Assembly (NCBI GenBank): GCA_965207065.1 | Contig: OZ242260.1 | Coordinates: forward strand, 4,064,001-4,128,000 | Length of the DNA stretch: 64,000 bases | Origin: a bacterium | GTDB lineage: Bacteria > UBA8248 | Direction: 5' to 3' | Shown here: in pieces, positions 57,831-59,567 of the stretch | How the letters are laid out: the number at the start of each line of letters is the position of its first letter | Numbering within the stretch: the first letter of the stretch is position 1 | Notes under the pieces: model-generated | What the model was told of the DNA's origin: nothing | What the model saw: the letters and a program-made list of their open reading frames with translations, nothing else | Databases searched by the model: none | Program-made: the position numbers and the translations under genes

Positions 57831-58193
57831 TTGGACTGGATAGGAGTGGGACTTTTGGCGCTGGGCGCCATCGTGGGCACGCTCAACGCGGCCACTGGCG
57901 TGGGCTGGGGCATCATCATGATGCCCGTGCTGTTCCTCATCCCCGGGCTCACGCCCCAGCAGGCGGTGGCGGTCTCGATTCTCGCCTATCTGTTCAACTC
58001 GCTGGTCGCCTCGTTCGAGAACGTGCGAAGCGGCCTAATTGTCTGGAATTACGCGGTTTATCTCAGCATCGGGGCTATCGTCGGCGGCGTCCTGGGCGCG
58101 CATCTTCTCCAGACATTCTCGGCGCTGACGCTCAAGAGAATCGTGGGCGTCGTTGTGATCGGCGCGGGCGCGAGCCTGCTCATCAACCGCTGA
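57831..58193 (+). CDS. Half-size TauE/SafE (sulfite exporter-like) membrane protein
   Basis: G...G.G.G....P.L, AVA.S, G...GG.LGA; four hydrophobic segments; TTG start after AAGGAG. Confidence 0.8.
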   Translation: MDWIGVGLLALGAIVGTLNAATGVGWGIIMMPVLFLIPGLTPQQAVAVSILAYLFNSLVASFENVRSGLIVWNYAVYLSIGAIVGGVLGAHLLQTFSALTLKRIVGVVVIGAGASLLINR

Positions 58194-58197
58194 AAAG

Positions 58198-58226
58198 AAA
58201 ACCCCCCGTTTATGACGAGGGGTTTC
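58198..58226 (-). terminator. Intrinsic terminator between convergent units
   Basis: AAACCCCCCGT-TTATG-ACGAGGGGTTT hairpin with a T-run on the minus strand (and a short one on plus). Confidence 0.6.
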
Positions 58227-58329: not shown

Positions 58330-58470
58330 CTATCCCAGCAGCTTCCTCTTCATCCAGCCCAAAGCCCGCGCCACGGCGGAGAACAGCCCGCCCACTCACG
58401 TGGGGCAGGCCGTTTGTTCCGGCGGCGTTTGGCCCTTATCGTGAATCTTCTCCTGCGTGGGGTTCGGCAT
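58330..58470 (-). CDS. Putative 46-aa selenopeptide with CxxU motif (UGA at codon 25)
   Basis: MPNPTQEKIHDKGQTPPEQTACPT-TGA-VGGLFSAVARALGWMKRKLLG-TAG; ATG 3 nt after the DUF971 stop, GGAGGAG SD; candidate SECIS hairpin after the TGA. Confidence 0.6.
58365..58381 (-). promoter_or_regulatory. Candidate bacterial SECIS element
   Basis: After the TGA: CTC-CGC[CGTG]GCG-C-GGG stem; apical loop about 20 nt from the UGA with G at loop position 2 (folded by eye). Confidence 0.4.
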
Positions 58471-58473
58471 GAT

Positions 58474-58827
58474 TCAGCCCTCTCCTCCCTGCGAGCTTTC
58501 GGCGCGTCCGGGGGCGATATCGTAAAGATAATCAAACGAATAGATGCCCGCGCCGCAGCCGCCCCGCCAGATGAAATTGATGGCGTAGCGCCCCACCATC
58601 TCCACGTTCTCGAGCTCTGTCGGCCCACTCGGCCCCGAGAGGACGGCGAGGGGGTTTTTCTCGCGCTCCTTGCGCTCCTCCTTGCAGTTCGCACACGGAC
58701 AAAGGGCCGCGAGGTAATCGAAGCCGTAGGCGCTCTTCTCCCCGCTCGCCCACTCGACGCGAAACTCGCGGGCGGGCTTGTCCACCGTGAGATCGACGGG
58801 ATGGGCCTTGTCGACAGGTGTGTTCAT
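58474..58827 (-). CDS. DUF971 / GBBH-like N-terminal domain protein
   Basis: W..G....Y...YL...CPCANC, VGRYAI...W..G...GIYSFDYL. Confidence 0.88.
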   Translation of the reverse strand: MNTPVDKAHPVDLTVDKPAREFRVEWASGEKSAYGFDYLAALCPCANCKEERKEREKNPLAVLSGPSGPTELENVEMVGRYAINFIWRGGCGAGIYSFDYLYDIAPGRAESSQGGEG

Positions 58828-58861
58828 AAGTCGTTGATCCCCTGAAGGTTATTGCGCCGCA

Positions 58862-59521
58862 CTATCTCGCCTTCATCCCGTATTTCTCATACTTCTTCGC
58901 CGAGGAGGTGCCGAGCTTGGCGGATTGGGGCGTCTTGAGCTCCAGCAGCCAGGGCCGCTCGGCCGAGGTGGCCCGCACGGCGTCCAATAGCCCCTGCTCG
59001 TCACCCTCGTTTTCCCAATCGCCTTCTTCGAGCTTCACGAAAACGGGTTTGCCCTCCCCGAAATCGAGCGTGGGAACGCCGAAGATGCCCTGCTCGGCCG
59101 CGTCCTCATGCTCTTGCGCAATGAGGGGGATGGTGGCGCCGTTTTTCATATCCTCCTCCCAGCGGTCGACGTCCAGGCCCACTTCCACGGCGATATCGCG
59201 CAGAACCAGCTCGCTGGTGATGTCCTTGCCGTCACGGTGCCTCGCCCGGTGGAGCGCCACGTGGTACTTGTCGAACTGCGTCTCGCCCTGTAAAGCCGCG
59301 CATTTAGCCGCCTGATGCGGGGGCAGATCCCTGCTCGGGAAGGTCTTGTCCTCCCAGGCCTTCCAGTCCTCTCCGCGCGAGGGGCCGAAATTCGCCTGCT
59401 CGAGCACGAAGGCCTTATAGTCCACATTCAAATCGCTTCTTTTCTCCTGAAGACGAACGAGCCACTCCATGGCCCTGTAGGCGTAGGGTCAGACGTAGCA
59501 GTTCCACATGGTGACTTTCAT
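58862..59521 (-). CDS. DsbA/FrnE-like thioredoxin-fold selenoprotein (UGA at codon 11)
   Basis: AAGGAG SD, then MKVTMWNCYV-TGA-PYAYRA in frame with the 202-aa ORF (cis-Pro loop GIFGVPT); the TGA sits at the active-site Cys position. Confidence 0.85.
59459..59475 (-). promoter_or_regulatory. Candidate bacterial SECIS element
   Basis: GGGCCA[TGGAG]TGGCTC hairpin; apical loop 19 nt after the UGA with G at loop position 2. Confidence 0.55.
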
Positions 59522-59567
59522 GATTTTCTCCTTAACAAACCGGGACATAAAGAAACATTGCGCGCCA

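Follow-up and report, generated by a model that had tools for sequence, protein, structure and literature searches.

A short gene with an invariant in-frame UGA behind DsbA-like selenoprotein and DUF971 genes probably encodes a new selenoprotein family in UBA8248 bacteria

The window, the 64,000-nucleotide stretch of DNA that was analyzed as a whole (positions 4,064,001 to 4,128,000 of contig OZ242260.1, assembly GCA_965207065.1), harbors a cassette of three genes on its minus strand. The first gene (58862..59521) codes for a DsbA-like selenoprotein (PF01323, 2e-17), with a C-Y-V-U motif whose TGA lies at 59491-59489. The second (58474..58827; 117 codons plus TGA) is a DUF971, or GBBH-like_N, gene (Pfam PF06155, E value of 1.6e-17). 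The third is a small open reading frame (ORF) of 46 codons plus TAG (58330..58470), with orthologues in 33 genomes. A DUF4202 gene is also found upstream of the small ORF, beyond DUF971 and alongside the DsbA-like gene. Approximately 105 nt past the small ORF, an intrinsic-terminator-like hairpin with a 12-bp stem, followed by the U-tract UUUUCUUUU, can form on the same strand (58190..58226). Folding predicted an energy of -17.9 to -20.2 kcal/mol for it (z of -2.9), and it was absent from the output of a consensus promoter and terminator scan. This hairpin is likely the end of the operon. A gene coding for a half-size (120 aa) TauE/SafE-family membrane protein (57831-58193, plus strand) converges on the operon, and a TauE-like ORF is convergent in a g9 locus too.

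The DsbA-like gene is the first of a conserved cassette. The motif MWNCYVUP was found upstream of DUF971 in 12 of the 13 loci inspected, the contig of the 13th beginning at DUF971; the MWNCYVUP-DUF971 loci include three that lack the small ORF. The neighboring DsbA-like motif, C-Y-V-U-P, is of the CxxU type, unlike the UxxC (form 1) and DxxUP (form 2) types given for DsbA-like selenoproteins in the available part of Table 1 of a 2026 review (PMC13188914). Alignment of the DUF971 proteins revealed four invariant Cys residues, C43, C45, C48, and C91, and their structural relatives are uncharacterized structures only (3luu and 2l6n).

The small ORF runs from an ATG (58470-58468) through 24 sense codons, including the ATG, to an in-frame TGA at codon 25 (58396..58398), then through 21 additional codons (58333..58395) to a TAG (58332-58330), all on the minus strand. 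With the TGA read as U, its product is MPNPTQEKIHDKGQTPPEQTACPT-U-VGGLFSAVARALGWMKRKLLG, 46 residues in total, and the TGA is the proposed Sec codon of a C-P-T-U motif. The first-pass annotation of this DNA had described such a 46-aa frame with CPTU, 21 codons past the TGA, and a TAG at its end, and all of these can be read from the minus strand. It had also pointed to a GGAGGAG Shine-Dalgarno (SD)-like sequence inside the end of DUF971, which is indeed present at 58482..58488, within the last codons of that gene and 11 nt 5′ of the ATG. The DUF971 stop is the TGA at 58476-58474, and the small ORF starts 3 nt later in the same frame in the window. Since the start of the small ORF lies 3 nt past the DUF971 stop or overlaps it, its translation is probably coupled to that of DUF971. 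The GC contents at codon positions 1, 2, and 3 after the TGA are 0.62, 0.52, and 0.90 in the window copy, compared with 0.66, 0.46, and 0.73 for 1,490 long ORFs of the same genome, so that the GC-rich third positions that had been noticed past the TGA are borne out.

The genome, a single contig of 4.48 Mb, has the machinery for Sec insertion. We identified a tRNA-Sec gene (75.9 bits), selB (386 bits), and selD (334 bits), the latter with one in-frame TGA itself. One copy of a SelW-like gene with a TGA was found, as well as nine matches of the CMD/AhpD type with one in-frame TGA each in the 4.5 Mb; the AhpD/CMD-type Sec genes are a strongly expanded selenoprotein family in this genome. TGA terminates 700 of 1,490 long ORFs and is the commonest stop of the genome, indicating that the genetic code is standard and that TGA has not been reassigned. 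According to the available part of the BSepDB paper, UBA8248, labeled Nitrospinota, has 48 to 54 selenoproteins, among the largest bacterial selenoproteomes (PMC13326102).

Apart from the genome of the window, 18 genomes of its genus were found by a six-frame peptide search to have a 47-codon frame containing a single TGA, and a 19th had weak support. A profile search brought in two more genera, and for genomes that gave no search match the DNA 3′ of DUF971 was read, which raised the family to 33 members. The phylum comprises one class with 51 genomes; DUF971 has an orthologue in 49 of them, and 33 have the small ORF behind it. The small ORF is present in 21 of 23 g1 genomes, in all 5 genomes of g2, in all 4 of g9, and in the single genomes of g3, g6, and f2/g10. 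It is found in 0 of 2 genomes of g8, 0 of 4 of g5, and 0 of 7 of family f4. The contig of g7 stops 104 nt past DUF971, too early for the small ORF to be scored, and g4 and g11, with one genome each, have no DUF971 match to read behind. That the ORF recurs with its in-frame TGA in 33 genomes argues that it is beyond chance. The family is confined to this one small phylum of uncultured, Nitrospinota-labeled bacteria.

The motif around the TGA is CPTU in 30 members, and CSTU, CHFU, and WPTU in one member each. The first-pass annotation had proposed to look for CxxC or CxxU variants behind DUF971 homologues. CxxU was present in 32 of the 33 members, the 33rd being the WPTU one, and no CxxC variant was found. 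The WPTU form belongs to a g1 member (L041 in genome G009, positions 1444-1599), in which TGG replaces TGC and two extra codons are found past the Sec codon. This member retains Sec without the partner Cys.

The Sec-DsbA and DUF971 genes persist without the small ORF in two g1 genomes and one g8 genome, indicating that the small ORF is dispensable. In the two g1 loci without it (L110 in genome G007 and L112 in G001), an unrelated gene starting with MRLSWNEMRARAAAF comes next after DUF971, suggesting that a rearrangement at the end of the operon removed the small ORF there.

The internal codon is TGA in all 33 members. By contrast, the stop codons of the same loci turn over, those of the small ORF itself being TAG in 16 cases, TGA in 11, and TAA in 5, with one lost to a contig end, and those of DUF971 being TGA in 21, TAA in 7, and TAG in 5. 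Constancy of this kind is not what one would expect if the UGA were an ordinary stop, the gene coding for a 24-residue peptide and the following 63 conserved nt being a noncoding 3′ RNA element such as a stabilizing or regulatory hairpin. That TGA is the commonest stop of the genome would fit with such an arrangement, as would the conserved hairpin in the region described below.

We then compared the sequences on both sides of the TGA. Column conservation over 20 g1 loci was 0.70 to 0.79 in the N-terminal part and 0.84 to 0.92 past the TGA, and it dropped to 0.50 to 0.55 beyond the stop, so that conservation ends exactly at the in-frame stop codon. The most conserved block straddles the TGA, which is directly preceded by an invariant P-T pair. 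When the post-TGA segments were compared between lineages with BLOSUM62, the mean score was 37.5 in frame versus 25.8 and 23.9 in the other two frames, and the in-frame reading scored best in 52 of 73 lineage pairs. Frame +1 contains stops in 28 of the 33 members, whereas frame +2 is open in all 33. A W-[MVI]-[KR]-R-K pattern is kept through multi-base exchanges between K and R and among L, I, and V. Within g1, the pN/pS ratio past the TGA was 0.56 in frame, compared with 0.78 and 1.55 in the shifted frames; the variable sites in the 21 codons were distributed 7, 8, and 10 over codon positions 1, 2, and 3, a modest bias that would also suit a noncoding element. The latter two analyses were conducted on 16 g1 sequences of equal length, leaving out four longer or divergent ones. 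The constant internal TGA among variable stops, the end of conservation at the in-frame stop, the in-frame advantage between lineages, the multi-base exchanges that preserve the peptide pattern, and the conserved block across the TGA all speak against an ordinary stop, which we regard as quite unlikely. The first-pass annotation had named frameshifts or loss of conservation after the TGA in relatives as observations that would contradict a Sec-containing product. The relatives have no frameshift, and the post-TGA frame is conserved up to a variable stop in the family with its 33 invariant TGA codons. An alternative-frame ORF starting at the GTG at 58399 was considered and rejected, as its start is not conserved (ACC TGA GTC variants occur) and frame +1 is interrupted in the 28 members mentioned above.

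We also considered that the small ORF might be a C-terminal extension of DUF971 produced by stop read-through, which would imply two recoded UGAs. The two genes are in the same frame in the window and in 23 of the 33 loci, and the DUF971 stop is TGA in 21 of them. Nevertheless, the frames differ in the other 10 loci and the DUF971 stop is TAA or TAG in 12, arguing that the small ORF is not a read-through tail of DUF971. In addition, the small ORF retains its own start codon and SD-like site. An extension of DUF971 is therefore hardly credible.

The start codons, which were chosen heuristically, are ATG in 12 members, GTG in 12, and TTG in 9. Among the 20 g1 loci (6 ATG, 9 TTG, and 5 GTG), the aligned start position is shared by 19, that of L041 being located two codons upstream. 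A purine-rich, SD-like stretch precedes the start in the relatives, other genera included, and the N-terminal part varies codon-wise and free of frameshifts. These features are difficult to reconcile with the region being merely a conserved, untranslated 3′ tail of the DsbA-DUF971 transcript, with its ORF-like features as by-products, and the invariant TGA, the end of conservation at the in-frame stop, and the better conservation of the in-frame reading argue in the same direction. The contigs assembled from four RNA-library runs cover parts of 58636-59522, and hence parts of the DsbA-like and DUF971 genes only, with none over the small ORF, which would be compatible with an untranslated tail but does not discriminate between the readings. 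On balance we find an untranslated tail highly improbable.

A translated small ORF whose UGA specifies Sec would need a selenocysteine insertion sequence (SECIS). A hairpin that may serve as such is found downstream of the UGA (58365..58380, minus strand), with a UCCGC/GCGGG stem closing a CGUGGC loop; counted from the U of UGA, the stem starts at +18 nt and the loop at +23 nt. Within the loop is the GU of the codon for the invariant Val33 (58374-58372). A Val codon (GUN) is located in the apical loop in all 33 members, with the loop starting between +23 and +29, and the hairpin has at least 5 contiguous pairs in 32 of them. Besides Trp39, Val33 is the only invariant residue past the Sec, and the constraint on it seems to come from the RNA and not from the peptide. 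The stem varies by lineage, with CCGC/GCGG, UCCGC/GCGGG, UCCGCGC/GCGUGGG, CGCGC/GCGCG, CCUCGCG/UGCGGGG, CCUUCUG/CAGAAGG, CCUUCU/GGAAGG, CUUCGCGC/GCGCGGGGG, and UCCUUCUG/CAGAAGGG as variants, as well as CUCCUUUC/GGAAGGGG and its extended form CUCCUUUC(G)/(U)GGAAGGGG. The pairing register moves by 1 to 2 nt between lineages, which precludes a column-by-column count of covariations.

To assess the pairing, we used synonymous recodings that keep the peptide and draw on the codon usage of the genome. The stem score anchored on the loop exceeded the mean of the recodings in 32 of the 33 members, with p values of 0.05 or less in 9 of the 33, all outside g1; p ranged from 0.06 to 0.48 in g1 and was 0.14 for the window copy. 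A consistent excess was seen only with this loop-anchored statistic. No excess stability was found for the g1 copies when fold energies were compared with dinucleotide shuffles or with synonymous recodings of the whole region, and the latter gave a z of 0.45 for the window copy. The window hairpin is weak, with 5 bp and -6.5 kcal/mol, and z values of -0.01 to 0.86 against dinucleotide shuffles. No Rfam family was detected in the region, either at the gathering score or at E values up to 10. We also noted that, on the minus strand of the window, the UGA itself lies in the GUGA loop of a 10- to 12-bp hairpin formed by codons 21 to 29 (58386-58410), a lineage-specific structure. Only a handful of g1 genomes have this UGA-enclosing hairpin in strong form; it is absent elsewhere, and it was rejected as the conserved element.

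The proposed SECIS resembles those of other Sec genes in this genome. In five of the nine AhpD/CMD-type Sec genes, a near-identical GGUC tetraloop is present at +24 to +27 on a short GC stem, and the neighboring Sec-DsbA gene has a hairpin loop at +23. GGUC is found at the loop in 10 of the 33 small-ORF copies, either entirely within the loop or with the first G contributing to the closing pair. In design, the SECIS-like hairpin matches those of the Sec genes that belong to known families in this genome.

We looked for homologues of the small ORF in protein and nucleotide collections. The window peptide had no Pfam match at E values up to 0.01. In NCBIfam, three of four members searched had no match at E values up to 1, and the fourth had two matches far below the cutoff. 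Searching 5.8 billion clustered proteins with a profile gave a single match, P0002, a 46-aa protein from a public metagenome gene call with W at the Sec position. Its DNA has a TGA at that position (L091, 2501-2638), indicating that the W is an artifact of the code used by the gene caller. When 1.84 billion representatives were scanned in full with HMMER, P0002 came up again, along with repeat proteins sharing the word CPTC. P0003, P0005, P0007, and P0008 are long repeat proteins that have only this ...CPTC... word in common with the small ORF, and P0004 and P0006, which match over several stretches in the same manner, were set aside with them. When 185,579 species genomes and JGI metagenomes were scanned with g1-type patterns, one of them in Cys form, the same group alone was found. 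A match in an Acidobacteriaceae sequence (L089) spans residues 29 to 44 only.

Altogether, no Cys-form homologue was found in the 5.8 billion clustered proteins, the 1.84 billion representatives, or the scans of genomes and metagenomes with the Cys pattern, and TGC, TGT, or TGG occupies the Sec position in none of the 33 members. Those codons would be expected among the relatives if Cys or Trp served at this position, as it would if near-cognate decoding by tRNA-Trp or tRNA-Cys, or low-level suppression of the UGA, yielded a 46-aa product without selenium. The weakness of the window hairpin and the W of the public gene call P0002 are compatible with such a reading. However, the W reflects the caller's choice of code for a TGA, the position and loop of the hairpin are those of the Sec genes of known families in the genome, and the genome has the Sec machinery. 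A selenium-free product is therefore very unlikely.

The usual criterion in selenoprotein searches is the existence of Cys homologues that align with Sec, as described in the available part of PMC1088965, and the small ORF has none. The available part of Table 1 in PMC13188914, which lists prokaryotic selenoprotein families, contains nothing that resembles it. Our literature search retrieved no paper that joins selenoproteins with DUF971 or CPTU with selenocysteine. On Nitrospinota selenoproteins, it retrieved the BSepDB paper alone, whose supplements, beyond the available part, might list the small ORF. Judging from these searches, the small ORF very probably represents a new, previously undescribed family without Cys-form relatives.

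We consider it likely, from the comparison of the sequences, that the ORF at 58470-58330 is a real gene, that its UGA at codon 25 is decoded as Sec by way of SelB and a SECIS, and that it occupies the third place in an operon with Sec-DsbA and DUF971. The proposal of a new small selenoprotein family made in the first-pass annotation is well supported by the TGA in 33 of 33 members, the in-frame conservation, the hairpin, the Sec machinery, and the lack of resemblance to a known family, from which we infer Sec insertion.

The product was modeled with AlphaFold2 using 20 relatives. The model consists of a disordered head and a single helix comprising residues 23 to 45, with mean pLDDT values of 84 for residues 31 to 40, 78 for residues 41 to 46, and 64 overall. 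This helix would place the C-x-x-U motif at its N-cap, as is the case for CxxC in thiol oxidoreductases. There is no thioredoxin fold around the motif in the predicted model. The amphipathic basic tail described in the first-pass annotation was also recovered, since the 21 post-TGA codons, VGGLFSAVARALGWMKRKLLG, are predicted to form a cationic amphipathic helix, with a net charge of +4 and a hydrophobic moment of 0.41 to 0.46 in the window copy. The longest uncharged run in the window tail is 9 residues. For 12 representatives, the helix has an uncharged run of 7 to 10 residues, a net charge of +4 to +7, and a hydrophobic moment of 0.4 to 0.7; none of them has the uncharged span of approximately 18 or more residues that a transmembrane segment or tail anchor needs. 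A transmembrane anchor would have to be longer and less charged than this tail, and a location at the membrane surface therefore suits it better than a membrane-spanning one. As modeled, the tail is an in-plane amphipathic helix and not a membrane span. The product is 46 aa long in the window and 46 to 71 aa long in complete relatives, with heuristic starts.

The first-pass annotation had tentatively suggested a membrane-tethered carrier for redox equivalents or metal, or a partner of the Sec-DsbA protein. The gene order, the coupling, and the motifs suggest that the product is probably a membrane-surface redox partner of the Sec-DsbA and DUF971 proteins. The operon would be arranged in the order Sec-DsbA-like (CYVU), DUF971, small ORF, and the SECIS would be a short, GC-rich hairpin 18 to 33 nt past the UGA, inside the coding sequence, with the GU of the Val codon in its loop. 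The product would have a variable, disordered, polar N-terminal part, followed by a C-x-x-U motif that caps a cationic amphipathic helix, and this helix may rest on the surface of the cytoplasmic membrane or on a partner protein. A selenenylsulfide between Cys22 and Sec25 might be cycled by the neighboring Sec-DsbA-like oxidoreductase, with the four-Cys DUF971 protein as a third partner. The WPTU variant and the three genomes in which DsbA and DUF971 persist after loss of the ORF indicate that the peptide is accessory rather than core, and Trp in place of Cys in one member is a poor fit with an obligatory Cys-Sec redox pair. More speculatively, the product could be a micro-protein with an obligate requirement for selenium at the end of a two-selenoprotein relay from Sec-DsbA to the peptide, with the four-Cys DUF971 as an adaptor, acting on a substrate at the membrane such as lipid peroxides, quinones, or a metal(loid), and with helix and SECIS encoded by the same nucleotides so closely that its Val is kept for the RNA loop. 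We put this forward tentatively, as a possibility rather than as the expected outcome.

Standard selenoprotein discovery needs Sec/Cys pairs and an ORF of callable length, and a 46-codon gene without a Cys form escapes both. The small ORF is represented by a single public gene call among more than 5.8 billion clustered proteins, and this call reads the TGA as Trp. The finding would add a family to UBA8248, a lineage described in the available part of PMC13326102 as having a very large selenoproteome. A CxxU motif at a helix cap could be a compact, chemically synthesizable model for why Cys cannot replace Sec, and the Val codon (GUN) represents a case of one codon under both peptide and SECIS-loop constraint.

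Several known systems can be compared with the small ORF. In the fdhF SECIS of Escherichia coli, the apical loop is GGUC, with essential G and U, and the minimal upper stem is spaced by approximately 11 nt. The hairpin of the small ORF is similar in that it comes right after the UGA and has GGUC or GU in the apical loop; its stem is shorter, however, and the window loop is CGUG(GC) rather than GGUC. Eukaryotic SELENOK and SELENOS are also small, largely disordered, membrane-associated proteins with a single Sec. Those proteins have an N-terminal transmembrane helix, a Sec near the C terminus, and a SECIS in the 3′ untranslated region, whereas in the small ORF the Sec would precede a C-terminal amphipathic helix and the SECIS would lie in the coding region, and there is no homology.

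Among bacterial families, the AhpD-like/CMD selenoproteins (PF02627) share with the small ORF a CxxU motif in which Sec is the second residue of the pair. The SECIS design of these genes, of which the genome has nine, also matches that of the small ORF, with a short GC stem and a 4-nt GU loop approximately 24 nt past the UGA. In contrast, AhpD/CMD proteins are approximately 150 to 240 aa long, adopt a defined fold, and are abundant in Cys form, whereas the small ORF product is 46 aa long, dissimilar in sequence, and without a Cys form. SelW-like/Rdx proteins (PF10262), which are thought to be redox active, have the CxxU motif and the small size class in common with it. They adopt a thioredoxin-like fold of approximately 75 to 95 aa, whereas the small ORF product matches no Pfam or NCBIfam family and is predicted to form a single helix. 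Lastly, the DsbA-like selenoproteins (PF01323) are the family of the neighboring gene. The small ORF itself codes for no DsbA, and the neighboring DsbA-like protein is its likeliest redox partner.
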